Assembly (NCBI GenBank): GCA_009926935.1
Contig: RFNZ01000007.1
Span: 14,200-78,199, forward strand
From: Pseudomonadota bacterium
GTDB taxonomy: Bacteria > Pseudomonadota > Alphaproteobacteria > Micavibrionales > UBA1664
DNA length: 64,000 nucleotides
Direction: 5' to 3'
Below are positions 8,758-63,181 of the stretch, in pieces. The position numbers and the translations under genes were made by a program. The notes below the pieces were generated by a model. That model worked only from the letters and a program-made list of their open reading frames with translations, had not been told where the DNA came from and did no database searches. Each line of letters starts with the position of its first letter. The first letter of the stretch is position 1.

Positions 8758-10746
8758 ATGCGCGTATCCGTCCTTCCTGCCACGGCTGTCGATAAAGCCT
8801 ATACCTATGCCGTGCCCGCGGGCATGGATGCGCCTGCCGTGGGTACTTATGTTGAAATCCCTTTGGGCCCGCGCAAGATTTTGGGCTGTGTATGGGATGA
8901 TGCGCCGGATGATGTGCCTGCAACCAAGCTTAAAGAAATATTGCAGATATTCGATACTGTGCCGCCAATGGCAGATGCACAGCGTCGGTTTATCGAACGT
9001 GTTGCCGCCTACACGGTTTCTGAGCGTGGCGAAGTACTGAAAATGGCGCTGTCCGCGCCTAAGGCCCTCACTGGCAAGCGCAGTATCAAGAAAATCGTGG
9101 CACCTTGTGCCAACCCCAATATAACCCGCGAGGGGGCTGTATTGACGCCTGAGCAAGCGAGTGCTGCCGAACGGTTATGCGAAGCCGTACGGGCAGGGGC
9201 CTATAGCTGTACGCTGGTGGATGGGGTTACGGGCGCGGGTAAAACCGAGGTGTATTTTGAAGCCGTGGCGGAAGCATTGAAGCACGGCAAACAGGTGTTG
9301 GTGCTATTGCCTGAAATCGCACTTTCTAATTCTTTTCTTGGGCGTTTTTCCGAACGCTTCGGGTGCCTGCCTGCCCTCTGGCACTCGGGCTTGACTGAGG
9401 CTCAGCGCAAAGCCACTTGGAAGGCTGTTGCCACAGGTGACACAAAAGTTGTAATTGGCGCGCGCTCCGCATTGTTTTTACCGTATGCGGATTTAGCCGT
9501 GATTGTGGTTGATGAAGAACATGACGGTGCCTTCAAGCAGGAAGACGGTGTGCGTTACCACGCCCGCGATATGGCCGTATTGCGTGGGCATTTGGCAGGG
9601 CATGCGGTTGTATTGGTCTCAGCCACGCCATCACTCGAGACATTCCACAATGTACGTGGACGGCGGTATGATGTTGTGCATCTGCCTGATCGTTACGGCG
9701 GGGCCCGGTTGCCCGATGTATCGCTGATTGATATGCGCAAAAATCCGCCTGAACGCGGAAACTTCATTTCGCCGCCTTTAAACGCAGCGATTGCCGAGTG
9801 CTTGGCGGCGGGTGAGCAATCACTGCTGTTTTTGAACCGGCGGGGCTATGCGCCTTTAACGCTGTGCCGCGCGTGCGGGCACCGTATCGAATGCGGTCAG
9901 TGTTCGGCTTGGATGGTTGAACACAGGCAATCCAAACGCCTTTCTTGCCACCATTGCGGCACGTCACAGCGCATGCCCGATAAATGCCCCAAATGCGGGG
10001 CGACTGACAGCCTTGTGCCCATCGGCCCCGGCGTTGAACGCATTGCTGAGGAAGTGCGCGATATGTTCCCGCAGGCGCGGACGCTCGTGCTGGCCAGTGA
10101 TACAGCGGGGGATGATGGGGCAGCACTGCACCAAGCCTTGGAGGCCATCCGTAGCCAGTCGGTCGATATCATCATCGGCACGCAGATTATCGCAAAGGGC
10201 CATCACTTCCCCAAGCTGACTTTGGTGGGTGTGGTGGATGCCGATTTGGGCCTTACCGGCGGGGATTTGCGTGCGAGCGAACGCACATGGCAGTTATTGC
10301 ACCAAGTGGCTGGCCGCGCTGGACGGGAGGCCGCGATGGGCCGCGTTTTGTTGCAAACCTTCATGCCTGAAAACCGCGTCATGCAGTCGCTCTGCGTGCA
10401 TGACCGCGATGCGTTTGTAGCCGTGGAACTTGAAGAGCGTGCGCAGGCCCACATGCCGCCTTACGGGCGATTGGCTGCCATTATTTTATCGGGTACAAAC
10501 CCAGCCGTAACCGAGGCCGCCGCAAGGGCCTTGGCGCAAGCCGCGCCGACTGCCGAGGGTCTTAGTATTCTGGGTCCTGCGCAGGCAGCGATTTATAAAC
10601 TACGCAACCACTTCAGGTGGCGGCTGTTGTTGAGCGCGGACAAGGCATTCCCGATGCAGGATTACATCCGTGATTGGCTTTCAAAAACAAAAGTACCGTC
10701 ATCCGTCCGCGTGGCGGTGGATGTTGATCCATATAGATTTCTTTAA
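8758..10746 (+). CDS. priA: Primosomal protein N' (replication restart helicase PriA)
   Basis: Walker A DGVTGAGKTEVY, DEEH box VVDEEHD, and the Cys-rich zinc region CRACGHRIECGQCSAWMVEH...CHHCG...CPKCG. Confidence 0.92.
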   Translation: MRVSVLPATAVDKAYTYAVPAGMDAPAVGTYVEIPLGPRKILGCVWDDAPDDVPATKLKEILQIFDTVPPMADAQRRFIERVAAYTVSERGEVLKMALSAPKALTGKRSIKKIVAPCANPNITREGAVLTPEQASAAERLCEAVRAGAYSCTLVDGVTGAGKTEVYFEAVAEALKHGKQVLVLLPEIALSNSFLGRFSERFGCLPALWHSGLTEAQRKATWKAVATGDTKVVIGARSALFLPYADLAVIVVDEEHDGAFKQEDGVRYHARDMAVLRGHLAGHAVVLVSATPSLETFHNVRGRRYDVVHLPDRYGGARLPDVSLIDMRKNPPERGNFISPPLNAAIAECLAAGEQSLLFLNRRGYAPLTLCRACGHRIECGQCSAWMVEHRQSKRLSCHHCGTSQRMPDKCPKCGATDSLVPIGPGVERIAEEVRDMFPQARTLVLASDTAGDDGAALHQALEAIRSQSVDIIIGTQIIAKGHHFPKLTLVGVVDADLGLTGGDLRASERTWQLLHQVAGRAGREAAMGRVLLQTFMPENRVMQSLCVHDRDAFVAVELEERAQAHMPPYGRLAAIILSGTNPAVTEAAARALAQAAPTAEGLSILGPAQAAIYKLRNHFRWRLLLSADKAFPMQDYIRDWLSKTKVPSSVRVAVDVDPYRFL

Positions 10747-18698: not shown

Positions 18699-19523
18699 AT
18701 GTCACTCCATGCAAAATTTGATGATCGTGTTTATGCGTGCACCGAGCATTTCGGTGTGTTCGATCTGGATGAGACACTTTTTCGGCACTGGGATGGGCTT
18801 GATGACAATATCGGGGCTGTGGTTCGTGATGTTTTGGCCTTAGAGCTTAAAGAACGTGGCATCACGGTTCGAGAATCCGAGATTGAGGATATTACCGAGG
18901 AGTCCTATGCGCATCATGGGCTTCCCATGTGGCTGGCTTCGCAGCGATGGGGTATTGACCACGCCATTTTGCATCGCCGGTATCATGTGGTCACTCTTGA
19001 TCGCCATGTTCTGCCAGAGCTCCCCGAGCGTATAGAAGAAAAGGCGGATTTTTATAGAACCCTGCGCGAGCAGCTTCAGGAAGCTGTTTCTCTCGATATG
19101 AAGTTTGGTGTGCTCACCCATGGTTGCGATACATGGGGCCGGGTCATTCCGGAGGCGCTTGATATAGCCAAGTACATGACCCTTATGCGCGGGATTGATA
19201 ATTACGGTAGCCGCCGCAAATGCACGAATCCATGCCTTTACCGTGATTTCCTAGGGGATGCCGGGTTTGCCGGGCATATAGCGGGGAATACGTTCATGGC
19301 TGAAGATAGGGCCAAAAATCTAATCGTGCCTGCCCGTATGGGCATGGTGCCGTATCTGGTTGGCGACAAGAGGCCTGACTATGCCGCAGAATACGGCATT
19401 ATCCATTATCCGGATGTCAACTATGTGCTGGCTGAGCAGATACGTTTCCGCCGTCAATGGCTCAGGGTTGTGGAGATGCAAGATAAGATACGTCTTTTTG
19501 TTCCGCCACGCTTCGCCATTTGA
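18699..19523 (+). CDS. HAD-superfamily hydrolase (pyrimidine 5'-nucleotidase-like)
   Basis: HAD motif I is VFDLDETLF. Later GVLTHG and AEDRAKN segments are consistent with motifs II and III. Confidence 0.6.
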
Positions 19524-21369: not shown

Positions 21370-21538
21370 ATGGTGTTGCAGGTTATCAACAAAAAGTTTC
21401 CTTTCTGATGTGCATTTTGCATTTTTGTCATTGTCTAAAATCAAAAATGTGAGAGGCTTATAAGTGTACGCGGTTCAAGTCTGACTCGTCCCTTGAGTTC
21501 TAGAGCCGCGTGTAGAAAGGCTTCTTTAATTTATCGTC

Positions 21539-22867
21539 ATGTATCCTAGGCCGCCCTTTGAAGTGGGAAACAAGCCGCAAAACAGCGAAAATGCTGAGGT
21601 TATGGCCTATGGCGGGAATGCCGATTCTGCTGTCTCTTCTACTTACTCAGCCAAAGAAGCTCCGCTGAAGGTTCGCGGGATCAAGCCTGCAAACACCGAA
21701 TCACTCAAGAAACCGGTCAACAGATTCCCCCTTTCGGATACGTCCAAAGCCTTCCTGAAGAAGTTTTATCCCGATGCCACCGTTGCCGATTGGAATGATT
21801 GGAAGTGGCAGGTCCGTAACCGTATCCGCAAGGCCGATACGCTCGGCAAGATTTTAAATCTCTCGGAGGATGAGAAGGCGAGCATTGACCGCCGGACCAA
21901 CAACCTGCCGATTGCCATTACGCCTTATTACGCCTCACTTTTGTCTGTTGATGATCCAAAGCAGCCGCTGCGCATGACCCATGTGCCTGTAGGCGGCGAG
22001 TTTGTAAGAGGCAAGGGGGAGGATCCCGACCCGCTGGGCGAGGATCACGATATGTCCGTGCCGGGTCTTGTTCACCGTTATCCGGACCGTGTTCTGTTTT
22101 TAACGACTGGTTTTTGCTCGACCTACTGCCGGTATTGCACGCGTTCACGCATGGTGGGGGAGACCAATGGCGAATATAGCTTTTCCATTAGCCAATGGGA
22201 GAAAGCGATTGAATATATTGCGGCTAATCCGCAAATCAGGGATTGCCTGCTTTCGGGCGGCGATCCGCTTAGTATTGGTGACGACAAGCTGGAATGGCTG
22301 CTTTCGCGCCTTCGTGCCATCCCGCATCTGGAATTCATCCGTATCGGGACCAAGATCCCCATCGTTATGCCGCAGCGCATCACGAAAAACCTTACAAAGA
22401 TGCTGAAAAAGTATCACCCGCTATGGATGTCCGTGAATATCACGCACCCGGACGAAATCACGCCTGAAAGTCGTGAGGCTTTCGCCCGGTTGGCTGATGC
22501 CGGTATCCCGCTTGGTGGCCAGACCGTACTTTTGAAAGACATCAACGATAACGTTGCAACCATGAAGAGCCTTATGCATAAAATGCTGACGGCCCGTGTG
22601 AAGCCTTATTACCTGTATCAGTGTGATCCTGTCTCAGGTTCAGCTCACATGAGAACACCTGTTTCTAAAGGTCTTGAAATCATTGAAGGTTTACGCGGGC
22701 ATACAACCGGCTATGCCGTTCCTCAGCTGGTTATTGATGCGCCGGGCGGGGGTGGAAAAATTCCCATACTTCCAAATTATGTTGAGGGGCGTGACGGTGA
22801 TTTCCTTGTCCTTCGGAATTTCGAAGGCAATACCTACCGCTACCCCGATCCTTTAGGCAAAGGTTAG
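21539..22867 (+). CDS. kamA: Lysine 2,3-aminomutase (KamA/AblA-type radical SAM enzyme)
   Basis: Radical-SAM CSTYCRYCTR, plus DWNDWKWQVRNR, PGLVHRYPDRVLFL, LLSGGDPL, YHPLWM and DAPGGGGK, colinear with clostridial KamA as I recall it. It carries an extra N-terminal stretch of about 85 aa, so the start is uncertain. Confidence 0.85.
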   Translation: MYPRPPFEVGNKPQNSENAEVMAYGGNADSAVSSTYSAKEAPLKVRGIKPANTESLKKPVNRFPLSDTSKAFLKKFYPDATVADWNDWKWQVRNRIRKADTLGKILNLSEDEKASIDRRTNNLPIAITPYYASLLSVDDPKQPLRMTHVPVGGEFVRGKGEDPDPLGEDHDMSVPGLVHRYPDRVLFLTTGFCSTYCRYCTRSRMVGETNGEYSFSISQWEKAIEYIAANPQIRDCLLSGGDPLSIGDDKLEWLLSRLRAIPHLEFIRIGTKIPIVMPQRITKNLTKMLKKYHPLWMSVNITHPDEITPESREAFARLADAGIPLGGQTVLLKDINDNVATMKSLMHKMLTARVKPYYLYQCDPVSGSAHMRTPVSKGLEIIEGLRGHTTGYAVPQLVIDAPGGGGKIPILPNYVEGRDGDFLVLRNFEGNTYRYPDPLGKG

Positions 22868-22871
22868 AGCC

Positions 22872-23885
22872 GTGCATATCGGCCTTGTTTACGATCTCAT
22901 CGATGACTATCTGGCCGAAGGATACTCCGAGGAAGAGGCTGCGGAGTTCGATGTCCTTTTCACAATCGAGTCGATTGAGGCCGCGCTTAAAGCCAACGGC
23001 CATACTGTCGAGCGTGTGGGCGGTCTTAAAAAGCTGATTGCGGCGCTTGCCATAGGTAAACGCTGGGATATGGTTTTCAATATAGCTGAGGGTATGTATG
23101 GCCTAGGGCGCGAGGCCCAGGTTCCCGCCGTTCTTGACGCCTATTGCATCCCGTACACGTTTTCGCCCACGGATGTCATGGTTACGACCATGAACAAGGC
23201 TTTGACCAAAACCGTGGTCCGTGATGCCGGTATCCCGACACCGGATTTTGCCGTTGTTTCCTGTGCATCGGATGCCAAGGCGGTTAGGTTGCCCTATCCG
23301 CTTTTTGTCAAACCCGTTGCGGAGGGTACGAGCAAAGGCGTTTCCGAGAATTCGCGCGTTACCAATGGGGCAGAGCTTGCGGCCCGTGCGGCTGAAATCA
23401 ACAAGCAGTTTCGCCAGCCCGCCCTTGTAGAGACTTTTTTGCCTGGCCGGGAGTTTACTGTCGGGATACTGGGGTCAGGCAAGCGGGCCCGCGTGATTGG
23501 CGTCATGGAAATTACCTTTAAGGAAACGGGCGATCAGAGCTGCTATTCCTATCGCAATAAAATCGATGCGCATGAGGTCATGACCCTTGTCGATGACGAT
23601 GATTCAAAGCGGGCCGGTGAGATGGCTCTTCGGGCCTGGCGTGCCCTTGGTTGCTGCGATGCTGGGCGGGTGGATACGCGGCTTGATGCCAATGGCGTTC
23701 CCAACTTTATCGAGGCTAATCCTTTGGCCGGGCTCCGGCCTGAGTACTCCGAGCTTACGGTTCTGGCGTTGCAGGCTGGCCTTTCCTATGAGGCATTGAT
23801 CGGCGGTATTGTTGATGAGGCCGCCAAGCGCTACAAACATCTGTTGCCTAAAAAAGTACGCGCAGAAGACCGTTGCCCGGCCTAG
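22872..23885 (+). CDS. ATP-grasp ligase, D-alanine--D-alanine ligase-like (copy 1)
   Basis: GTG start giving (M)HIGLVYDL. Ddl-like features are PLFVKPVAEGTSKGV, REFTVGILG and GRVDTRLDANGVPNFIEANPLAGL. Confidence 0.75.
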   Translation: MHIGLVYDLIDDYLAEGYSEEEAAEFDVLFTIESIEAALKANGHTVERVGGLKKLIAALAIGKRWDMVFNIAEGMYGLGREAQVPAVLDAYCIPYTFSPTDVMVTTMNKALTKTVVRDAGIPTPDFAVVSCASDAKAVRLPYPLFVKPVAEGTSKGVSENSRVTNGAELAARAAEINKQFRQPALVETFLPGREFTVGILGSGKRARVIGVMEITFKETGDQSCYSYRNKIDAHEVMTLVDDDDSKRAGEMALRAWRALGCCDAGRVDTRLDANGVPNFIEANPLAGLRPEYSELTVLALQAGLSYEALIGGIVDEAAKRYKHLLPKKVRAEDRCPA

Positions 23886-23917
23886 GCCCAATGGTCATTT
23901 TATAAAGAAAGCAGAAC

Positions 23918-24904
23918 ATGGGACTGGTGATCGTATTGCATGACGGCAGCGTGGGTGATGCCAATACGCTGGAAACAGGTAATGCCGTTGCGCAGGCCGA
24001 GGAAAGCGCAGGTTTGCTGCGCGAGGCTGGTTTTGAAACGCGTATTATTGATTACAGCCAGAACGGCCAGCAGGCGCTGCTGCCTTTTAAGGGGCGGGGC
24101 GATGTCGTGATCCTTAATCTGGTCGAGTCGATTGACCGCCGTGATGATCTCGCCTGGCAATGCCCGCAGTGGCTTTTTGAAAATGGTTTTGCATTTACGG
24201 GTGCCTCGGCCAGTGCCTTGCGCCTTGGTGACAACAAGATCGTTGCCAAAAAACTGATGACCCAAAACGGCATCCCGACTGCACCTTGGCACGAGATAGA
24301 AGCATTGCCTGCTCTGGTCGCCACAGGAGAAAAGTGGATTTTGAAGGCCGCCTGCTTCCATGCCTCGCTTGGTATTGATGAGGAAAACGTCACCACAAGC
24401 TTTGCCGCGCTCCATGGCCTTGCAAAGAAGCGGAAGGATACATTTGGCGGTGACTGGTTTATAGAAAAATATATTGATGGCCGCGAGTTCAATATGGGGA
24501 TGATGGGGCGTTTTGGCGGTGAGCCCGACATCCTGCCTGCGGCCGAAATGGTGTTCGCCGACGAGGTTTATGCCGGGCGCGAGCAAAAAATCATCGGTTA
24601 CAAATCCAAATGGGATGAAAGTGCTCCTGAGTATAATGGGGCGAGCGCGCGTTATGCCTTTGATTCCGGTGATCAGGCGCTGCTTGCCAGTATTCAGGCC
24701 ATTTGCCGGCAGTGCTGGCAGGTGTTTGGGCTTGGGGGCTATGCGCGTGTGGATTTCAGGGTAGATCCTGAAGGGCGGCCTTATGTATTGGAGGTCAATA
24801 CCAATCCGTGCCTTGCCGTTGGTGCCGGGTTTATGAATGCCAATGCGCAGCGTGGGCTGACAGCTGTGCAGGTCATGGAAAAGCTGGTGTTACTTGCGAG
24901 ATAA
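23918..24904 (+). CDS. ATP-grasp ligase, D-alanine--D-alanine ligase-like (copy 2)
   Basis: REFNMGMMG and ARVDFRVDPEGRPYVLEVNTNPCL form the ATP-grasp Mg/ATP C-terminal motif. Distinct from copy 1. Confidence 0.75.
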   Translation: MGLVIVLHDGSVGDANTLETGNAVAQAEESAGLLREAGFETRIIDYSQNGQQALLPFKGRGDVVILNLVESIDRRDDLAWQCPQWLFENGFAFTGASASALRLGDNKIVAKKLMTQNGIPTAPWHEIEALPALVATGEKWILKAACFHASLGIDEENVTTSFAALHGLAKKRKDTFGGDWFIEKYIDGREFNMGMMGRFGGEPDILPAAEMVFADEVYAGREQKIIGYKSKWDESAPEYNGASARYAFDSGDQALLASIQAICRQCWQVFGLGGYARVDFRVDPEGRPYVLEVNTNPCLAVGAGFMNANAQRGLTAVQVMEKLVLLAR

Positions 24905-25408
24905 ATGGGTGTTGTGATGGCGGTAGATACAGAGAACCTTTTTCTTTCAGAAATTCCCCTGGATTCGGACGTGCAGGCAGTGATGTCGCTTGTGAGCAAG
25001 CTGAGCGTTTTTAGCGATACCGAGATTGCTGTTGCCGGTGACCTTGTTGCCGAGGCTATTTCAGGCGAGGAAGAGTATTTTTTTGTTTTCTATCGCACGC
25101 CGGATCGCCAGATTGCAGGGTATAGCTGCTATGGCACTATCCCACTTACCAAATCGGCCTACGACCTCTACTGGATTGCAATCGATCCGGCCTATCGCGG
25201 CATCGGCCTTGCCGACAAGATTATAAAACTGACGCATGAGCGTATCCGCCAAGGTAACGGTGATCAGGTTTACGCCGAGACATCATCGCTGCCCCAGTAC
25301 GAAGCCGCACGGAAATTTTACCTCAGGCAGGGCTATACCGAGATTGCGCGGTATAAAAACTTCTACAAACCGGGCGACGACAAACTGGTTTATCGAAAAG
25401 AACTATAG
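24905..25408 (+). CDS. GNAT-family N-acetyltransferase
   Basis: YWIAIDPAYRGIGLADKII (acetyl-CoA-binding R-x-x-G-x-G/A) and AARKFYLRQGY. The start abuts the stop of the preceding ATP-grasp gene. Confidence 0.7.
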   Translation: MGVVMAVDTENLFLSEIPLDSDVQAVMSLVSKLSVFSDTEIAVAGDLVAEAISGEEEYFFVFYRTPDRQIAGYSCYGTIPLTKSAYDLYWIAIDPAYRGIGLADKIIKLTHERIRQGNGDQVYAETSSLPQYEAARKFYLRQGYTEIARYKNFYKPGDDKLVYRKEL

Positions 25409-25649: not shown

Positions 25650-27338
25650 ATGGTTAGCGAAGTCATCCTGGGCGCTGGGCTCAGGGCGAACCTGTTGTCG
25701 CTACAGCGGACGCAGGTCCAGATTGATCAGGTTCAAAATATTCTGTCTACGGGTCTTCGGGTCAACTCTGCCCTCGATAACCCGCAGAATTTTTTTCAGG
25801 CACAATCTCTACGTAGCTCATCCAATGATCTCTTACGCTTACTGGATGGGGTTGGGCAATCCATCCAAACAGTCAAGGCAGCTGATGCGGCCGTCGAAGC
25901 AATATCGTCTCTATTGAACCAGGCCGATTCGATTGTCGAATCAGCGCGCGAGGCCCTTGCGGCAGGGCAGTTACAGGCATCCATTACCGGTAACGTCAAT
26001 CTTGCGGGTAAATCGAGTCTCACCACTATCTCTGGCATCTCTAACACGGATGACGTGTATTTCGAGTATTACAACACGAGCGGTGTTCTTCAGACGGCCA
26101 GCATCGATATTGCTACGGGCGAGTCTACTGACGATTTTATTGCTGAAATTAAGGATATCGGCGGTGGGGGCTATTTTAATGCTGAATTGACATCCGAGGG
26201 CTTCCTCAAGATCACCGAAATCCGCGGTGGCAATTTTACCGTCAACTTTACCGCAGATAACAACGCCGCTGCCTCTAACGCGGCTGATACATCGCTGGCT
26301 TCAGCCCTTGGTTTTGGTAATCAAATCAACGCGACCACAAGAAACGGTGGTGCTGCCACCAACGCAAACGCTGAAATTACGGCTCTTGCCACAACAAAAC
26401 TGAAATCCGGCGCTTTTTATGAAACAGTCGCGGGCCAAGGTTTTGCAGAGGCATCAGACCTTTTGACAGGCGTTGCAGCAACAGATGGCGGCGCTGCAAG
26501 ATTTGCTGCTGCGGGCGCGCCAAACATCACTTTCCGGATTAACGGCACAACGACATCGGCCAATATTGCCGTGAGTGGCACGACCATTCAGGGACTTGTC
26601 GACGCCATTAATACCGATGTGAACGTGGGTAATTTGATTGATGCGAGCTACGATGCCACGACCGGTCAGTTGAGTATTTCAGCTATTGATTCGTCCGTAA
26701 AAACCATCACGGTCACTTCCACCAACACAGCGGCGGTTGCAAGCACGGTAGATTTTGATTTCGGTACGGATACGTCATTCCAGCCGGGTGCTGCGATTGG
26801 CGATGCCGAGGGTGAGACCTTCACGCTAGCGTCTGCTACGGCGACTCTCGGTAGCCTTGAAAGTGACTATAATTCGATATTGACGCAGATTGACAGCCTT
26901 GTAGAGGATGCCAAATTCCAAGGCGTCAACCTGCTTGAAAACGGCACGCTAAACACGTTTTTCAATAAAGAGCGAACCAACAAACTAACGACGCAGGGCG
27001 CCAATTTAAGCTCGTCCGGCCTTGGACTTACGGCGGCCAATTTTACGACAACGGTCAATATTGATGATGCATCAAGTAAAGTGGCAGCAGCAAAAACAAC
27101 GCTTCAGAATTTTGGAGCGTCTATCTCTAATTCACTCACGATCATCCAAACACGGGAAACGTTTATCAACGACCTTGTTGAAACAAACAACGAGGGCGCG
27201 GACAAACTCACCCTTGCGGACCAAAATGAAGAAGGTGCAAAACTGTTGGCGCTTCAGACCCGCCAGCAACTTGGTGTAACGGCGCTTTCGCTGGCTGCGC
27301 AAGGGCAGCAGTCTGTCTTGAGACTGTTTGCCAGCTAA
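25650..27338 (+). CDS. Flagellin-family protein (562 aa)
   Basis: N-terminal flagellin helix LSTGLRVNSALDNPQNFFQAQSLRS...VKAADAAVEAISSLLNQ and C-terminal helix LLALQTRQQLGVTALSLAAQGQQSVLRLF flank a Cys-free variable domain of about 350 aa rich in T, A, N and G. Confidence 0.8.
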   Translation: MVSEVILGAGLRANLLSLQRTQVQIDQVQNILSTGLRVNSALDNPQNFFQAQSLRSSSNDLLRLLDGVGQSIQTVKAADAAVEAISSLLNQADSIVESAREALAAGQLQASITGNVNLAGKSSLTTISGISNTDDVYFEYYNTSGVLQTASIDIATGESTDDFIAEIKDIGGGGYFNAELTSEGFLKITEIRGGNFTVNFTADNNAAASNAADTSLASALGFGNQINATTRNGGAATNANAEITALATTKLKSGAFYETVAGQGFAEASDLLTGVAATDGGAARFAAAGAPNITFRINGTTTSANIAVSGTTIQGLVDAINTDVNVGNLIDASYDATTGQLSISAIDSSVKTITVTSTNTAAVASTVDFDFGTDTSFQPGAAIGDAEGETFTLASATATLGSLESDYNSILTQIDSLVEDAKFQGVNLLENGTLNTFFNKERTNKLTTQGANLSSSGLGLTAANFTTTVNIDDASSKVAAAKTTLQNFGASISNSLTIIQTRETFINDLVETNNEGADKLTLADQNEEGAKLLALQTRQQLGVTALSLAAQGQQSVLRLFAS

Positions 27339-27408: not shown

Positions 27409-28299
27409 TTAGCACTTGGGACGCAGACCCATAGAATACGACAGGATTTTGTAGACCAGTTTGGCCGCTAAAAAATCGCAGGCGTGAAGGCCCTTTTCGG
27501 GCGCAAGTTCTACCACATCGGCACCGACGACTTTGCATTTTTCGGTGGCTGCCTCCAGTACATCCATCACTTCATCCCAGAAAAGGCCGCCGGGTTCGGG
27601 CGTGCCGGTTGCCGGTATCAAGCTTGAATCAAAACCGTCTATATCGAATGTAATATAAACGCGGCCTGTGCCGACGGCTTTTGCGACATCGGCGGGCGTC
27701 CATTTCTTTTTGTCCTTGGCCCAGAAGATTTCGATCCGGTCTTTGTATTTTTCGAGGATTGGCAGTTCGGAGGCCGAGATGTTGCGGATGCCGACCGATA
27801 CAAGCCGCACGTTGGGGTTATCAAGGCAGCGGCACATGGCGGCGGCGTGGCTGTAATGTACGCCGTCATAGCCATCGCGCAAATCGGCATGGGCATCGAA
27901 TTGGAGGATGGTGAGCGGTTCGTTTACAAAGGGCCTGATGGCACCTGGGGTGAGCGAGTGCTCACCGCCCAAAACAAGCGGGAATTTACCGGCTTTCAAA
28001 ACATCGGCCACGATGCCTTGGAGTTGCGTTAAAGCATCCTCCAGTTTCTCTGCGATTTTTGGTTCTTTTAAGGTCGCGATGCCGTAGTGACGGAAGGCTT
28101 CTGTCCATAGAACCTCATCAAAAAACTCAAGGTTTGGGGAGGCATCGAGGATCGCCTGCGGGCCTTTTGCCGTGCCGCCGCTATAGGATACGCTTTTTTC
28201 GAGGCCAAAGGGGATCAGCACCGTTTTGCAGTTTTCGGGTGCAATCGCATCTTCTTGCGGGAGGTGCATAAAAGCTTTGTCGTGCGGCAGGTAATCCAT
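27409..28299 (-). CDS. speB: Agmatinase (arginase-fold ureohydrolase)
   Basis: Mn-ligand motifs LGGEHS, QFDAHADLRD and ITFDIDGFD. The ATG at 28299 (MDYLPHD) is favoured over the TTG at 28326. Confidence 0.85.
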   Translation of the reverse strand: MDYLPHDKAFMHLPQEDAIAPENCKTVLIPFGLEKSVSYSGGTAKGPQAILDASPNLEFFDEVLWTEAFRHYGIATLKEPKIAEKLEDALTQLQGIVADVLKAGKFPLVLGGEHSLTPGAIRPFVNEPLTILQFDAHADLRDGYDGVHYSHAAAMCRCLDNPNVRLVSVGIRNISASELPILEKYKDRIEIFWAKDKKKWTPADVAKAVGTGRVYITFDIDGFDSSLIPATGTPEPGGLFWDEVMDVLEAATEKCKVVGADVVELAPEKGLHACDFLAAKLVYKILSYSMGLRPKC

Positions 28300-28310
28300 A
28301 TGATGTTCCC

Positions 28311-28823
28311 ATGAAAATCGGTTCAAAATGCTTTACGTTGATTAGCGTAAATGACGACAATTTGGAAGAATATCTGGCACTTTTTGCGCTAATCTTTCCT
28401 GCGGACGACTATACGACGAATACCGTCATCGCCGAGCATTACGAGCGTTGGATTGTTAGCGATGCTGGCCAAGCCTTGGGCATTTGCGGTCTTTATGGGC
28501 TGCGGGGGCATCCGGGCGATGTCTGGTTGGATTGGTACGGTTTGGTGCCGGAGCGGCGTGAGCAAGGCTATGAGCAGCCCCTTTTGAACGAGATGATGGC
28601 GCGCGCGCGGGCACGTGGCGGGCGGCGCTTTTTGCTATGGACGACATGGCGCGAGCTTGAGGGCACTAGACTTGCGGCTTTTTACAAGGCAAACGGGTTC
28701 AAAAAAACCGCTTGGATGTTGCACTACAACGATTCATTCGTCTTTACCTTTGACAGGCTTTTGGGGGATGCGCAGGGGCATTGCCCTGTTATGCGCCTTC
28801 ATCCGGATGATTGGTTGCATTAA
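28311..28823 (+). CDS. GNAT-like acetyltransferase
   Basis: 170 aa. GLVPERREQGYEQPLL and RLAAFYKANGF resemble GNAT motifs A and B. Divergent from speB across an 11-bp gap. Confidence 0.55.
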   Translation: MKIGSKCFTLISVNDDNLEEYLALFALIFPADDYTTNTVIAEHYERWIVSDAGQALGICGLYGLRGHPGDVWLDWYGLVPERREQGYEQPLLNEMMARARARGGRRFLLWTTWRELEGTRLAAFYKANGFKKTAWMLHYNDSFVFTFDRLLGDAQGHCPVMRLHPDDWLH

Positions 28824-28824
28824 A

Positions 28825-28977
28825 TATGGCGTTCAGCCGCCACGCGCTCGCTCCGCTCGCCTTGGCTTCGCTCGCATTGGAGCAGTTTTTCACGGCAAAT
28901 AGGTTCCCTATTCGCCTAAACGGCTCCGGCTCGCGGGGGCGCTTGCGCCCCTTAAGTCCTATGGCGTTCAGCCGCCA
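28825..28977. repeat. 18-bp perfect direct repeat TATGGCGTTCAGCCGCCA bracketing a 117-bp GC-rich segment
   Basis: Copies lie at 28825-28842 and 28960-28977. The second copy contains the nspC stop codon. The segment between them holds GCTCGC-type low complexity and the hairpin GGGGCGC-TT-GCGCCCC (28936-28951). Confidence 0.8.
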
Positions 28978-30134
28978 ACGCGGCGCAAAAAGTCAGCGTA
29001 GCCGAAGGTTTGCACCACTTCATAACGGCCATCTTCGTGCAGTATGGCCATATCGGGCAGCGGGGTCCCGTTGAAGGTGGTGTCTTTCACGAAGCTATAT
29101 TGCATTTGGTCCGTGAAGATAATTTTATCGCCGGTTTTAAGGGGGGCTTTAAAGCCGTACGCGGTTGGAATAAAGTCGCCGGTCATGCAGGTTTTGCCGC
29201 CCATCAGGTAGTGGTGCGGATAGGTTTTATTGTTTAAGTCGCGTGTGGCACCCGCAATATCGGGGGTGAATTCAAAATTGGTTTCGATGACATCCGGCAT
29301 GTGGCAAGACACGGAGCTATCGAGGATGGCGATTTTCGTATCGCCGTTTTTGTGGATGTCGATGACCGACGTCACAAGGTAGCCTGCGTTGTAAACAAGT
29401 GTGCCGCCAGGTTCTAAAACCACTTCAACGCCGTATTTTTCACGGAAGGCTTTGATGCGGGTAATCATGGGTTCGATGTCGAAGCCTGCATCGTTGAAAA
29501 AGTGCCCGCCGCCAAGGTTTACGGCCTTTACCCGTTTTACGTACTGGCCGAAATTGGTATCGAGTGTGTCGAGCAAGCCTACGGTGCCTACATGTGTGCG
29601 GCTTTCGCATAGCACATGGGCGTGGAGGGTGTGGATGTGTTCCCATGGCAGGGCGTCCAGTTCGTCTTTTCGGGTGCCGAAACGGGAGCACGGGGCACAG
29701 GGGTTATACAAATCGCCGCCCACGGTGCTGACCGAGAATTCAGGGTTGATGCGGATGCCGATTTTTTTGTCCTTGATGCGCGGCAGAAAGCGGTCCAGCT
29801 GGGATGGAGAATTAAAATAGATGTGATCGGTTAGTTTGGCCAAGCCTTCCAATTCGGCATCTGTATAGGCGGGGGCGTAGACATGGATTTCTTTGCCGAA
29901 ATGGTCTGCGCCCATTTGGGCTTCATATAGGCCGCTGGCGGTTGTGCCGTCCAGATATTCGCGCATCATCGGGAAGAGGGCTGGGAAGGCAAATGCCTTA
30001 GTGGCCAGCAGCATTTTGCAGCCCGCGCGTTTTTTGATGTCGGCGGCGCGTTCAAGATTTTTACGGATAGCGCCCACGTCCGCTACATAGGCGGGCGTAC
30101 GCATTTTATTTAAGGGCAGTTTTGTCGCGTTCAC
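28968..30134 (-). CDS. nspC: Carboxynorspermidine/carboxyspermidine decarboxylase
   Basis: 388-aa PLP fold-type III protein (MRTPAYVADVGAIRKNL, NLGGGHFF). It lies immediately downstream of the saccharopine-dehydrogenase-like gene, the canonical pairing. Confidence 0.85.
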   Translation of the reverse strand: MNATKLPLNKMRTPAYVADVGAIRKNLERAADIKKRAGCKMLLATKAFAFPALFPMMREYLDGTTASGLYEAQMGADHFGKEIHVYAPAYTDAELEGLAKLTDHIYFNSPSQLDRFLPRIKDKKIGIRINPEFSVSTVGGDLYNPCAPCSRFGTRKDELDALPWEHIHTLHAHVLCESRTHVGTVGLLDTLDTNFGQYVKRVKAVNLGGGHFFNDAGFDIEPMITRIKAFREKYGVEVVLEPGGTLVYNAGYLVTSVIDIHKNGDTKIAILDSSVSCHMPDVIETNFEFTPDIAGATRDLNNKTYPHHYLMGGKTCMTGDFIPTAYGFKAPLKTGDKIIFTDQMQYSFVKDTTFNGTPLPDMAILHEDGRYEVVQTFGYADFLRRVGG

Positions 30135-31361
30135 TTAAGCCGCTTTGAGCTGTTTTGCGCCTTTAAGCTCGGCTTCCGTTTTGGCGTCGAGGTCTTTGAC
30201 GTGCCATGGCAGGCCTTGCTTTGCCACTTCTTCCATGAAGGGTTCTGGCGGCAGTTGCTCGACGTTAAAGACGCCCGTGCCGCGCCATAGCCCTTTGAAC
30301 ATCATCATCGCGCCGGTAACCGCTGGAACACCAGTCGTGTAAGACACGGCCTGCGCGCCCAATTCGGCATTTGTTTTGGCGTGGTCGCAGACGTTGTAGA
30401 TGAACTTTTTCACGGTTTTGCCATTCTTAATACCTTCAAAGATGCAACCGATGGATGTCTTGCCTGTGTAATTTTCGGCCAAGCTCGATGGTTCTGGCAG
30501 CAAGGCCTTCAGGAATTGCAGCGGGATGATTTCAACGCCGTTGTAAATCACGGGGTCAATGCGGGTCATGCCCACGTTTTGCAGGACATCAAGGTGTTTG
30601 ATGTAGTTGTCGGAGAACGTCATCCAGAAGCGGATTTGCTTGAGGCCCTTGATGTTTTTCACCAGCGATTCTTCTTCCTCGTGGTAAATGAGGTACGACT
30701 TTTTAGGCCCGACTTCAGGGTAATCCACCATGCAGGCGATGCTGAGGGGGTCGATTTCAATCCATTGTCCGTCTTTCCAGTATTTGCCGCGCTGGGTTAC
30801 TTCACGGATGTTGATTTCTGGGTTGAAGTTGGTCGCGAAAGCGTGGCCATGGTCACCGGCGTTGCAGTCCACGATATCGATTGTGTGGATTTCATCGAAC
30901 AGCTGGTTTTGGGCGTAGGCGCAGTAGATGTTGCTCATGCCCGGGTCAAAGCCGCAGCCAAGCACGCCCATGATGCCTTTTTCCTTGAACTTGTCGTGGT
31001 ACGGCCACTGCCATTTGTACGAAAACTTGGCTTCGTCTTTGGGTTCGTAGTTGGCCGTGTCCATGTAGTGGACGCCCGTGGCCAAGCACGCATCCATGAT
31101 TGTGAGGTCCTGGTAGGGCAGGGCCATGTTGATGAGAAGGTCGGGTTTAACCTTTTCAATCAGCTTGATGACGGCTTGCGTATCATCAGCATCGACCTGA
31201 CTTGTCGTCACTTCGCCCTGACATTCCTTTGCGATGGCCTCGCATTTGGAAAGTGTGCGGGATGCCAGGTGGATTTTTTTGAATACGTCGCGGTTCATCG
31301 CGCATTTTTTTGCCACAACCGAGCCCGCGCCACCGGCGCCGATGATAAGTACGCTATCCAT
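30135..31361 (-). CDS. Carboxynorspermidine/carboxyspermidine synthase (saccharopine-dehydrogenase-like, CASDH)
   Basis: Rossmann motif LIIGAGGAGSVVA, 408 aa, paired with nspC. Confidence 0.85.
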   Translation of the reverse strand: MDSVLIIGAGGAGSVVAKKCAMNRDVFKKIHLASRTLSKCEAIAKECQGEVTTSQVDADDTQAVIKLIEKVKPDLLINMALPYQDLTIMDACLATGVHYMDTANYEPKDEAKFSYKWQWPYHDKFKEKGIMGVLGCGFDPGMSNIYCAYAQNQLFDEIHTIDIVDCNAGDHGHAFATNFNPEINIREVTQRGKYWKDGQWIEIDPLSIACMVDYPEVGPKKSYLIYHEEEESLVKNIKGLKQIRFWMTFSDNYIKHLDVLQNVGMTRIDPVIYNGVEIIPLQFLKALLPEPSSLAENYTGKTSIGCIFEGIKNGKTVKKFIYNVCDHAKTNAELGAQAVSYTTGVPAVTGAMMMFKGLWRGTGVFNVEQLPPEPFMEEVAKQGLPWHVKDLDAKTEAELKGAKQLKAA

Positions 31362-31378
31362 TGTTTTCTCCTTGTAAA

Positions 31379-32578
31379 TTAGCGCTTCATGATGATCTGG
31401 CCAGAGTGGCCGAAATCGTTGAAGTTTGATCGCAATGCCTGAGAATAGGCTCCCATGGTCTGGATTTCAATCCAGTCTCCAGCCACGATGTCGGAGGGCA
31501 GCATGAAAGGCCCCTTCATCATGTCCAGCGAATCGCAGGTGGGCCCCGCGAAGCGGTATGGCGTCAGGTCCTGTTCGCGGCGCTGCATACCGTTGAACGA
31601 GATAGCCTTGGTAGCATAGCGGGCGCGGACCTGCGCACCGGCGTCAAAGAGGCCGGCATAGGTGCCGTCGTTGATGTGGAGCAGGTTGCCTTTGCGGGCT
31701 TCCACGCGCACGACCAGCGACATGGCGGTGGCCACAAGGGCGCGGCCAGGTTCGCACATCAGCGGGATTGCATCCATTTTCTCCGCCTTCAGGGTGCTGG
31801 TAATGACATCCACAAAGTCAGAGAAGGGCGGAAGAGGCTGCGAGCCAGGATACTCGACCGGGAAACCGCCGCCAACATCCAGAACATCAATGTTGACCTT
31901 TGAGGCACGAAGCACCTTCGAGGCAACCTTGATCGCGCGCTTGTAAGCGATTGGGTCCGTGCATTGCGTGCCGACATGCAGGCAAAGGCCGAGACGCGTT
32001 GCCACTGGGCGGCAAGCTTTGAGTAGTTCCGATGCGTCGTAAGGCAGGGCGCCAAACTTGGTCGAGAAGTCGATTTGTGCCTTGCTGTTTTTTGGCAGCG
32101 CCATGCGTACGAACAGTTCAAGGTCCTGCGCCAAATCAGTTGCGCGCATGATCTTGTAAAGCTCGTCCATGCTGTCCAGCACGAAAGAGCGAACGCCGTG
32201 GCGTTTATACGCTTCCGCAATCGCCTCGGGCGATTTTACGGTGTGCATGAAGTACAGTTTTGCCTTTGGAGCCAGTTTCCGAACCATGCGCACTTCGCCA
32301 ATCGAGGCTACGTCAAAAGCGCGTACGCCGGCGCGGTACAGGGTCTGGATAATGGTTTTATCCGGGTTGCATTTGGTCGCGTAAACCGTTTCGCCCGGGA
32401 ACTGGGTCAGGAACATTTTTGCGCAGTCTGCCACGCGCTCAGGCCACAAAAGGTAGAGCGGATCGACGGGGGCGATTTCGCGCACAACGTCGGCAACCTC
32501 GCCCGAATAGGCGTGGTTAGGCGCTACAAAACCGCGAGCGCGGGCGGCAAATGATTTGGGGGTGATAACGTTTGTCAT
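31379..32578 (-). CDS. Group IV PLP-dependent decarboxylase (ornithine/arginine/lysine decarboxylase-like)
   Basis: PLP-lysine motif VYATKCNPD, plus LDVGGGFP and AGPTCDSLD. First gene of the three-gene polyamine operon. Confidence 0.85.
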   Translation of the reverse strand: MTNVITPKSFAARARGFVAPNHAYSGEVADVVREIAPVDPLYLLWPERVADCAKMFLTQFPGETVYATKCNPDKTIIQTLYRAGVRAFDVASIGEVRMVRKLAPKAKLYFMHTVKSPEAIAEAYKRHGVRSFVLDSMDELYKIMRATDLAQDLELFVRMALPKNSKAQIDFSTKFGALPYDASELLKACRPVATRLGLCLHVGTQCTDPIAYKRAIKVASKVLRASKVNIDVLDVGGGFPVEYPGSQPLPPFSDFVDVITSTLKAEKMDAIPLMCEPGRALVATAMSLVVRVEARKGNLLHINDGTYAGLFDAGAQVRARYATKAISFNGMQRREQDLTPYRFAGPTCDSLDMMKGPFMLPSDIVAGDWIEIQTMGAYSQALRSNFNDFGHSGQIIMKR

Positions 32579-63094: not shown

Positions 63095-63181
63095 GGCCCC
63101 GTGGCGGAACTGGTAGACGCACACGACTTAAAATCGTGAGTCCGAAAGGGCGTGCCGGTTCAATTCCGGCCGGGGCCACCA
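63095..63181 (+). tRNA. tRNA-Leu (anticodon UAA), type II with long variable arm, encoded CCA
   Basis: Acceptor GGCCCCG/CGGGGCC, anticodon stem-loop CACGA-CTTAAAA-TCGTG, T-arm GCCGG-TTCAATT-CCGGC, discriminator A plus CCA, followed by a T-run. Confidence 0.9.

Follow-up and report, generated by a model that had tools for sequence, protein, structure and literature searches.

The window examined here is a stretch of 64,000 nucleotides from a Pseudomonadota bacterium of the order Micavibrionales (GenBank assembly GCA_009926935.1, contig RFNZ01000007.1, positions 14,200 to 78,199 of the forward strand). Positions 21539-25408 of this window carry a cassette of four genes that encode a KamA-family aminomutase, two distinct ATP-grasp ligases (designated AG1 and AG2) and a small GNAT acetyltransferase. 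With moderate confidence, the cassette is read as an operon for the synthesis of an N-acetylated, amide-linked conjugate of beta-lysine, a solute or polycation whose chemistry is predicted from the encoded enzymes. The enzyme families are familiar, but the conserved four-gene architecture has no assigned product and is a variant of the known beta-lysine pathways. The genes are co-directional with intergenic gaps of 4, 32 and 0 nucleotides in the list of open reading frames, the same as in the initial annotation of the stretch, and are laid out as follows.

21539-22867, forward strand: kamA, radical-SAM/PLP (S-adenosylmethionine/pyridoxal phosphate) aminomutase of the KamA family, 442 amino acids, ATG start; Pfam Radical_SAM and LAM_C
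22872-23885, forward strand: AG1, Ddl-fold ATP-grasp amide ligase, 337 amino acids, GTG start; Pfam Dala_Dala_lig_C, E 4e-28
23918-24904, forward strand: AG2, second and more divergent Ddl-fold ATP-grasp amide ligase, 328 amino acids; Pfam Dala_Dala_lig_C, E 2e-15
24905-25408, forward strand: small RimI-like GNAT N-acetyltransferase, 167 amino acids; Pfam Acetyltransf_7, Acetyltransf_1 and Acetyltransf_10
21370-21538, forward strand: intergenic leader between nadC and kamA, 169 nucleotides

AG1, AG2 and the GNAT are identical to the deposited proteins NBX66544-66546, encoded on a 795-kb contig of a metagenome-assembled genome, and thus are not chance open reading frames. Other genes of the window have their nearest neighbors in the Alphaproteobacteria.

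The arrangement is conserved far outside the Micavibrionales. When one genome per GTDB species was scanned for the pattern, at least 600 stretches matched and at least 595 were confirmed; the neighborhood counts rest on 80 loci retained from that scan, with gene order determined by tblastn with the four window proteins. The 80 loci belong to the Desulfobacterota (many orders), Bacteroidota, Planctomycetota, Acidobacteriota, Actinomycetota, KSB1, WOR-3, Neomarinimicrobiota, Alphaproteobacteria and Gammaproteobacteria, or about ten phyla. In 69 of the 73 loci with enough sequence, KamA is encoded immediately upstream of AG1; AG2 is downstream of AG1 in 62 of 69, and the GNAT follows in 52 of 57. 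Co-conservation of all four genes, which the initial annotation had proposed to survey, is borne out: of 54 loci covered in full, 46, from about ten phyla, show the complete KamA-AG1-AG2-GNAT order. Median identity to the window proteins is 61% for KamA, 53% for AG1, 37% for the GNAT and 34% for AG2. The genes flanking the cassette differ between lineages, so the conserved unit is the cassette itself. Cultured organisms with the cassette include Leisingera thetidis and Leisingera sp. JC1, and Oleidesulfovibrio alaskensis probably carries it as well.

Proteins of the cassette are also joined into single polypeptides, which strengthens the link between them. AG1-AG2 fusions have about 640-730 amino acids; in one of them (P0257) the N-terminal half matches AG1 at 50% identity and the C-terminal half resembles AG2. 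Judged by length, 20 or more of the top 150 representative clusters are AG2-GNAT fusions, which have about 480-545 amino acids, and three of these fusions are confirmed by Pfam. A third type, in which a protein of the HDAC family is fused to the cassette GNAT, is present in the complete genome of L. thetidis (CP109787.1; 750 amino acids, locus L089:9983-12235) and at L075:7879-10287.

The motifs CSTYCRYCTR, DWNDWKWQVRNR and DAPGGGGK cited in the initial annotation are all found in the KamA translation. The reported colinearity with clostridial KamA also holds, since residues 76-439 align with residues 8-369 of the lysine 2,3-aminomutase of Clostridium subterminale (2A5H) with one 2-residue gap (E 7e-133, 52% identity). 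The cysteines of the iron-sulfur/SAM motif CxxxCxxC (C193, C197 and C200) correspond to C125, C129 and C132 of 2A5H, K407 in DAPGGGGK corresponds to the PLP lysine K337, and R202, D363 and D400 align with Arg134, Asp293 and Asp330. The iron-sulfur cysteines, R202, D363, D400 and K407 are invariant in an alignment of 10 KamA family sequences. In 2A5H, as Lepore et al. reportedly described in 2005, Arg134 binds the alpha-carboxylate of the substrate, and Asp293 and Asp330 bind the epsilon-ammonium group of lysine.

Among the NCBIfam models, only that of the generic KamA family (TIGR00238) is passed by the window protein, with 358.5 bits against a cut-off of 199.2. The best-scoring curated aminomutase model is AblA (TIGR03820; 480.9 bits, cut-off 525.4), followed by the glutamate (411 bits, cut-off 650) and arginine (387 bits, cut-off 600) 2,3-aminomutases and EpmB (TIGR03821; 249.7 bits, cut-off 369.3), none of which reaches its cut-off. 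Identity to Escherichia coli EpmB (342 amino acids; from NC_000913.3) is 35%. Because of these scores, the identities and the conserved functional residues, the window KamA is predicted to be of the lysine-2,3-aminomutase type and not an EpmB, which agrees with the grouping proposed earlier (AblA 481 versus EpmB 250 bits; 52% versus 35% identity). The further claim that it is a "bona fide" lysine 2,3-aminomutase is sound as to type and as to catalytic and substrate residues but is slightly too strong, given the score below the AblA cut-off, the lack of a C-terminal zinc-cysteine region and the replacement of Cys268 by Asn. The protein stops 3 residues past the position aligned to residue 369 of the 416-amino-acid 2A5H chain, and the zinc-cysteine region of the clostridial enzyme (C375, C377 and C380) is missing; C268 of 2A5H corresponds to N338. 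In the family alignment, the other members share this early C-terminal end.

The N-terminal extension described in the initial annotation is real, although about 75 rather than about 85 amino acids precede the core. The two closest relatives share the ATG at 21539 and the first KamA residues; the start chosen by the automatic gene caller is a GTG at 21563, which gives 434 amino acids. The extension is a family trait: about 70 of 73 orthologues (loci L005-L084) have, close to the N terminus, the acidic motif E-x-x-[ED]-P-P-[GS] with a variable linker after it. Degenerate versions of this motif (SENAEV, SENAGV; window 21539-21760) are found in the window KamA and the two proteins closest to it. 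The E-P-P-[GS] motif could be a docking peptide. An open reading frame of 152 amino acids at locus L016 (3755-4213, forward strand) resembles the extension (DDEEPPS ... NWHWQI) and is either what remains of a pseudogene or an independent N-terminal module. With its N-terminal extension, its missing C-terminal zinc region and its score below the AblA cut-off, the window KamA is classed in a distinct subfamily.

A substrate other than free L-lysine, either another basic amino acid (ornithine or arginine) or a lysine dipeptide after ligation, is quite improbable for this enzyme. It would be in keeping with the membership of a distinct subfamily, extended at the N terminus and without the zinc region, and with scores below the curated cut-offs (Lys 481 versus 525, Glu 411 versus 650, Arg 387 versus 600), but the lysine-binding aspartates and the carboxylate-binding arginine of 2A5H are invariant and the Lys model gives the highest score. 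Ruzicka and Frey are said to have noted in 2007 that glutamate 2,3-aminomutases have Lys and Asn in place of the lysine-binding aspartates. Clostridial-type KamA also begins lysine fermentation, and a purely catabolic KamA that performs the first step of this route would explain an enzyme of the type found here. This is extremely improbable, as the window flanks and the conserved neighbors contain no genes for beta-lysine 5,6-aminomutase, 3,5-diaminohexanoate dehydrogenase or the 3-keto-5-aminohexanoate cleavage enzyme and the partners of KamA in the cassette are ATP-consuming ligases.

The EpmB/EpmA system likewise uses a KamA-family aminomutase, and EpmB (342 amino acids) and the window KamA both lack the clostridial C-terminal region. 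The two systems differ in that the cassette ligases are ATP-grasp enzymes and not a LysRS paralogue, and in that neither epmA nor efp is nearby. As stated in the initial annotation, the cassette has no such neighbor: in the 10 kb that flank it on each side, Pfam identifies neither an EF-P gene nor a gene for a class-II tRNA synthetase. A tblastn search with E. coli EF-P gave no match in the 64-kb window or in loci L001-L084.

The two ligase genes set the cassette apart from known beta-lysine operons. Both proteins contain the Dala_Dala_lig_C domain, which confirms that two distinct ATP-grasp ligases are encoded between kamA and the GNAT gene. Both fall far below the cut-off of the best Ddl model (NF002378, 243 bits), AG1 with 149 bits and AG2 with 69.8 bits. 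The AlphaFold models of AG1 and AG2 (predicted local distance difference test scores of 92 and 94, respectively) find Ddl as their best Foldseek matches, with TM (template modeling) scores of 0.76-0.8 for AG1. For both ligases, Foldseek returned only Ddl and Van structures at TM of about 0.75-0.8, a result that says nothing on substrate. AG1 relatives are abundant, with thousands of significant matches in a word-indexed search, the 120 best listed being at least 57% identical. At E <= 1e-30, proteins of the AG2 type fall into 628 clusters at 50% identity.

For a comparison of residues, 83 AG1 and 68 AG2 sequences were aligned to E. coli DdlB (identical in sequence to 1IOV/2DLN), whose numbering is used here. 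The residues K97, K144, E180, E187, K215, R255, D257, E270 and N272 are all invariant in AG1. In AG2, K97, K144, E180, E187, K215, D257 and N272 are invariant, R255 is present in 67 of 68 sequences and position 270 is E in 64 and D in 4. Since the residues for ATP, magnesium and catalysis are invariant or almost so, AG1 and AG2 are both predicted to be competent ligases. The cassette ligases thus share with Ddl and Van enzymes the three-domain ATP-grasp fold and the ATP, magnesium and catalytic residues but differ from them in the pocket and in location, as they sit in an aminomutase operon and not among cell-wall genes. At H63, AG1 has an invariant E and AG2 is variable, mostly D; at S150, AG1 has T (S in a few) and AG2 has A; at Y216, AG1 has E or I and AG2 an invariant W; at G276, AG1 keeps G and AG2 has C in 67 of 68; at L282, AG1 is always acidic (D or E) and AG2 has an invariant G. 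When S150, Y216, S281 and L282 are taken as the D-Ala pocket that defines membership in Ddl, neither AG1 nor AG2 belongs to it, and AG1 is predicted not to be a housekeeping Ddl. The more acidic pocket of AG1, the better conserved of the two ligases, would fit a cationic partner such as a diamino acid. The pocket of AG2 is predicted to be larger than that of Ddl.

The acetyltransferase carries the acetyl-coenzyme A (acetyl-CoA) motif R-G-I-G-L-A in its translation. Its only curated match is rimI (TIGR01575), at 37.6 bits against a cut-off of 86.4, a weak match that reflects general GNAT resemblance only. As of June 2026, AG1, AG2 and the GNAT have no dedicated model in NCBIfam, and KamA is assigned there to the generic family only. 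The closest relative of the window GNAT in the Protein Data Bank is 2R7H (E 8e-27), a structural-genomics entry named "putative D-alanine N-acetyltransferase." 2R7H matches the cassette GNAT of an Oleidesulfovibrio metagenome-assembled genome (locus L028) over all 150 residues with E 1e-69, about three quarters of the positions being identical by eye. The source organism of 2R7H is O. alaskensis strain G20.

N-epsilon-acetyl-beta-lysine is made in methanogens and some bacteria by KamA (AblA) and an acetyltransferase (AblB), and this pair was offered in the initial annotation as a precedent. The likeness is that of a lysine-2,3-aminomutase-type enzyme followed by a GNAT in the same operon. The window GNAT gives no match to the AblB model (TIGR03827) even at E <= 5. 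The precedent therefore stands as an analogy but not as homology for the acetylation step, since the GNAT is not a homologue of AblB. The cassette also differs from ablA-ablB in that two ATP-grasp genes part kamA from the GNAT gene at nearly all loci so that the two are not adjacent, in that the GNAT is RimI-like with 167 amino acids, and in that KamA is below the AblA cut-off, extended at the N terminus and shorter at the C terminus. It is very unlikely that the product is plain N-acetyl-beta-lysine and that the ligases serve an unrelated purpose such as cell-wall dipeptide supply. KamA and an acetyltransferase do constitute the known minimal route to that compound, but the acetyltransferase here is not AblB, the ligases lie between kamA and the GNAT gene at nearly all loci and are often fused to each other or to the GNAT, and both are far below the Ddl cut-offs and lack the D-Ala pocket residues.

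An accessory gene recurs with the cassette. A GNAT-HDAC protein of about 590 amino acids is encoded in 18 of the 80 loci. These 18 loci represent at least six phyla, and the gene lies between those for AG2 and the GNAT or right after the latter; it is absent from the 64-kb window. The protein combines a weak GNAT-like domain at the N terminus with a full Hist_deacetyl domain (Pfam E 1e-70 to 1e-75) with intact catalytic motifs (PPGHHA, DxDxHHGNG and GGY). It resembles acetylpolyamine amidohydrolases and other HDAC proteins in this domain and its catalytic motifs and differs from them in that GNAT-like domain and, in some genomes, in having the cassette GNAT at its C terminus. The recurrence of an HDAC partner suggests that the acetyl group of the product is on an aliphatic amine and is removable, which would amount to a protect/deprotect step or a charge switch.

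Other additions to the cassette are confined to few lineages. Small SET-domain genes of the lysine methyltransferase type are within or appended to the cassette at only two alphaproteobacterial loci (L004:6472-6855 and 9023-9409; L075:10291-10737) and hint at N-methylated variants of the product. In Smithella, a multi-pass membrane protein of 115 amino acids with no NCBIfam match is encoded between AG2 and the GNAT gene (L034:8007-8354 and L073:2326-2673) and could be an exporter. LysA, PhoU and Pit, which were considered as downstream partners, are confined to Smithella and Syntrophales loci and were rejected.

The always paired and at times fused ligases raise the prospect of a cyanophycin-like polyamide, a chain based on oligo- or poly-(beta-lysine) that the ATP-grasp enzymes would build iteratively. 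Such a chain would be a polycation or would store nitrogen, and its charge or its end would be controlled by acetylation and deacetylation. Cyanophycin synthetase elongates its product iteratively by means of an ATP-grasp domain, the acidic substitutions in the AG1 pocket suit a cationic substrate, and an acetylase and a deacetylase are fused in some genomes. Ddl-type enzymes form single dipeptide bonds, however, and the cassette offers no primer-binding or Mur-ligase-like domain and its conserved neighbors no depolymerase gene, which makes such a polymer a doubtful proposition of low probability.

Modification of a protein or peptide is also unlikely. Here beta-lysine or a beta-lysyl peptide would be put on a target such as a translation factor or ribosomal protein and then acetylated, deacetylated or methylated, by comparison with EpmA/EpmB, RimK and RimI. 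Consistent with this are RimI as the sole curated-family match of the GNAT, the accessory HDAC-family and SET-domain proteins as classic modifiers of protein lysines, and the conserved KamA motif as a possible docking peptide. Against it, both ligases belong to the Ddl clade and their best structural matches are all Ddl or Van ligases, there is no conserved candidate target gene and no efp or epmA in the window or loci L001-L084, KamA is nearer to lysine 2,3-aminomutase (52%) than to EpmB (35%), and SET genes are present at 2 loci only. To our knowledge, all characterized Ddl-clade ATP-grasp enzymes ligate small molecules. Most of the alternatives are thus argued against by the Ddl-clade ligases, by the lack of efp, epmA or a conserved target gene and by the fusions.

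In the preferred pathway, which leads to an acetylated beta-lysine conjugate, the first and well-supported step would be the conversion of free L-lysine to beta-lysine (3,6-diaminohexanoate) by KamA. We infer that beta-lysine is what is ligated and acetylated in the steps that follow. AG1 and AG2 would each form one amide bond by the Ddl mechanism, in which a carboxylate is converted to an acyl phosphate that is attacked by an amine. AG1 most likely acts on beta-lysine itself, because its conservation equals that of KamA and its nucleophile pocket holds additional acidic residues. AG2 probably extends or decorates the AG1 product, since it is more variable and has an enlarged pocket. The RimI-like GNAT would use acetyl-CoA to acetylate a free amine, before or after the ligations, thereby neutralizing charge or shielding one of the two amines. 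Optionally, the active-looking HDAC-family amidohydrolase, sometimes fused to the GNAT, would remove the acetyl group.

The most plausible role of the product is that of a cytoplasmic solute or stress protectant, or of a polyamine-like cation, by analogy to N-epsilon-acetyl-beta-lysine and to N-acetylglutaminylglutamine amide (NAGGN). The latter is reportedly made by the Ngg/AsnO pathway, in which a GNAT is fused to an ATP-grasp enzyme, as Sagot and coworkers are said to have described in 2010. The NAGGN pathway applies the same logic of a GNAT and an ATP-grasp ligase to an N-acetylated dipeptide solute, and its fusion is paralleled by the AG2-GNAT fusion of many genomes with the cassette. It differs in its amino-acid building blocks and in the lack of an aminomutase, and the ATP-grasp domain of Ngg belongs to another ATP-grasp clade than the cassette ligases. 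A more specific proposal, put forward tentatively, is that the cassette produces a new class of beta-lysine-based, N-acetyl-capped oligoamide (a dipeptide, tripeptide or short polyamide) whose charge is set by the acetylase/deacetylase pair and which may be a widespread solute or polyamine-like cation.

Several observations weigh against a linear pathway from lysine to an acetylated beta-lysine conjugate. KamA scores below every equivalog cut-off for lysine, glutamate and arginine aminomutases, so its predicted substrate is drawn from four conserved residues. There is no adjacent KamA at loci L029 and L031, and L016, a Bacteroidales metagenome-assembled genome, keeps only an N-terminal fragment of KamA upstream of HDAC-AG1-AG2. 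The fusion of an acetylase and a deacetylase, which have opposing activities, is odd for a simple linear pathway. GNAT, SET and HDAC families are also typical modifiers of protein lysines. The source environments (peat, groundwater, sediment, digester and marine, by genome titles) show no obvious salinity bias, which weakens a purely osmolyte role.

The initial annotation knew of no characterized product for this four-gene arrangement, and a literature search agrees, having returned only reports of the AblA/AblB type and unrelated papers, with an earlier in silico mention being possible. In bacteria and archaea, beta-lysine is known in only a few roles: as an osmolyte precursor (AblA/AblB), in the modification of EF-P, in lysine fermentation and in some antibiotics. 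The preservation of the cassette and its gene order across phyla points to a further and common use of beta-lysine. Once the product is identified, a function could be assigned to thousands of genes labeled "D-alanine--D-alanine ligase," "KamA family radical SAM protein" and "N-acetyltransferase" and to the orphan structure 2R7H. If the proposed pathway is true, anaerobic sediment and soil bacteria may make a compatible solute or polycation that is new.

The regulation of the cassette was addressed by several searches. For the window and for 11 loci of diverse origin, tRNAs were the only Rfam matches at the gathering threshold, with no riboswitch and no match in the 169-nucleotide leader. A scan of the kamA leader for sigma-70 promoters and terminators gave nothing above shuffle expectation, and no sigma-54 consensus promoter lies upstream of the window kamA. 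The sigma-54 consensus is present upstream of kamA in 5 of 69 loci, compared with 1 of 69 in the reverse-complement control. Near-consensus sigma-54 promoters (TGGCAC-N5-TTGC) are found upstream of kamA in the Desulfobacterota loci L020, L028, L050 and L064. Genes for NtrC-type regulators are upstream in 13 loci and look like lineage synteny. A search for defense systems with PADLOC gave no match, and a search of plasmids found no AG1 homologue at E <= 1e-40.

The cassette is preceded in the window by the ATP synthase genes, an unannotated gene for 274 amino acids, nadA and nadC. The 274-amino-acid gene (18699-19523, forward strand) lies between atpC and nadA and has no Pfam match on record; it has a weak, sub-threshold match to pyrimidine 5'-nucleotidase (HAD-like), and its position is kept in the relatives L086 and L087. 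Downstream of the cassette is a flagellin gene, followed by a polyamine cluster on the opposite strand. The flagellin gene is solitary (25650-27338, forward strand; 562 amino acids) and has only Flagellin_N by Pfam. The relative L088 has no flagellin gene in the corresponding position.

The polyamine-biosynthesis cluster (27409-32578, reverse strand) is convergent to the cassette and encodes an agmatinase (Arginase family), a carboxynorspermidine decarboxylase, a member of the saccharopine/carboxynorspermidine dehydrogenase family and an Orn/Arg decarboxylase. The carboxynorspermidine decarboxylase scores 396.6 bits with the nspC model, slightly below the cut-off of 409. A functional link between the cassette and polyamines was considered and rejected: polyamine genes are absent among the conserved neighbors in other phyla, and the adjacency is therefore treated as local synteny. 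In L088, polyamine genes (CN_hydrolase, PAD_porph and a decarboxylase) directly adjoin the cassette. A small unclassified GNAT gene (28311-28823, forward strand) is divergent from the polyamine cluster in the window and overlaps the agmatinase open reading frame when the latter is read from its first ATG, GTG or TTG. The sole Rfam match in the window is a tRNA gene at 63095-63178 on the forward strand.

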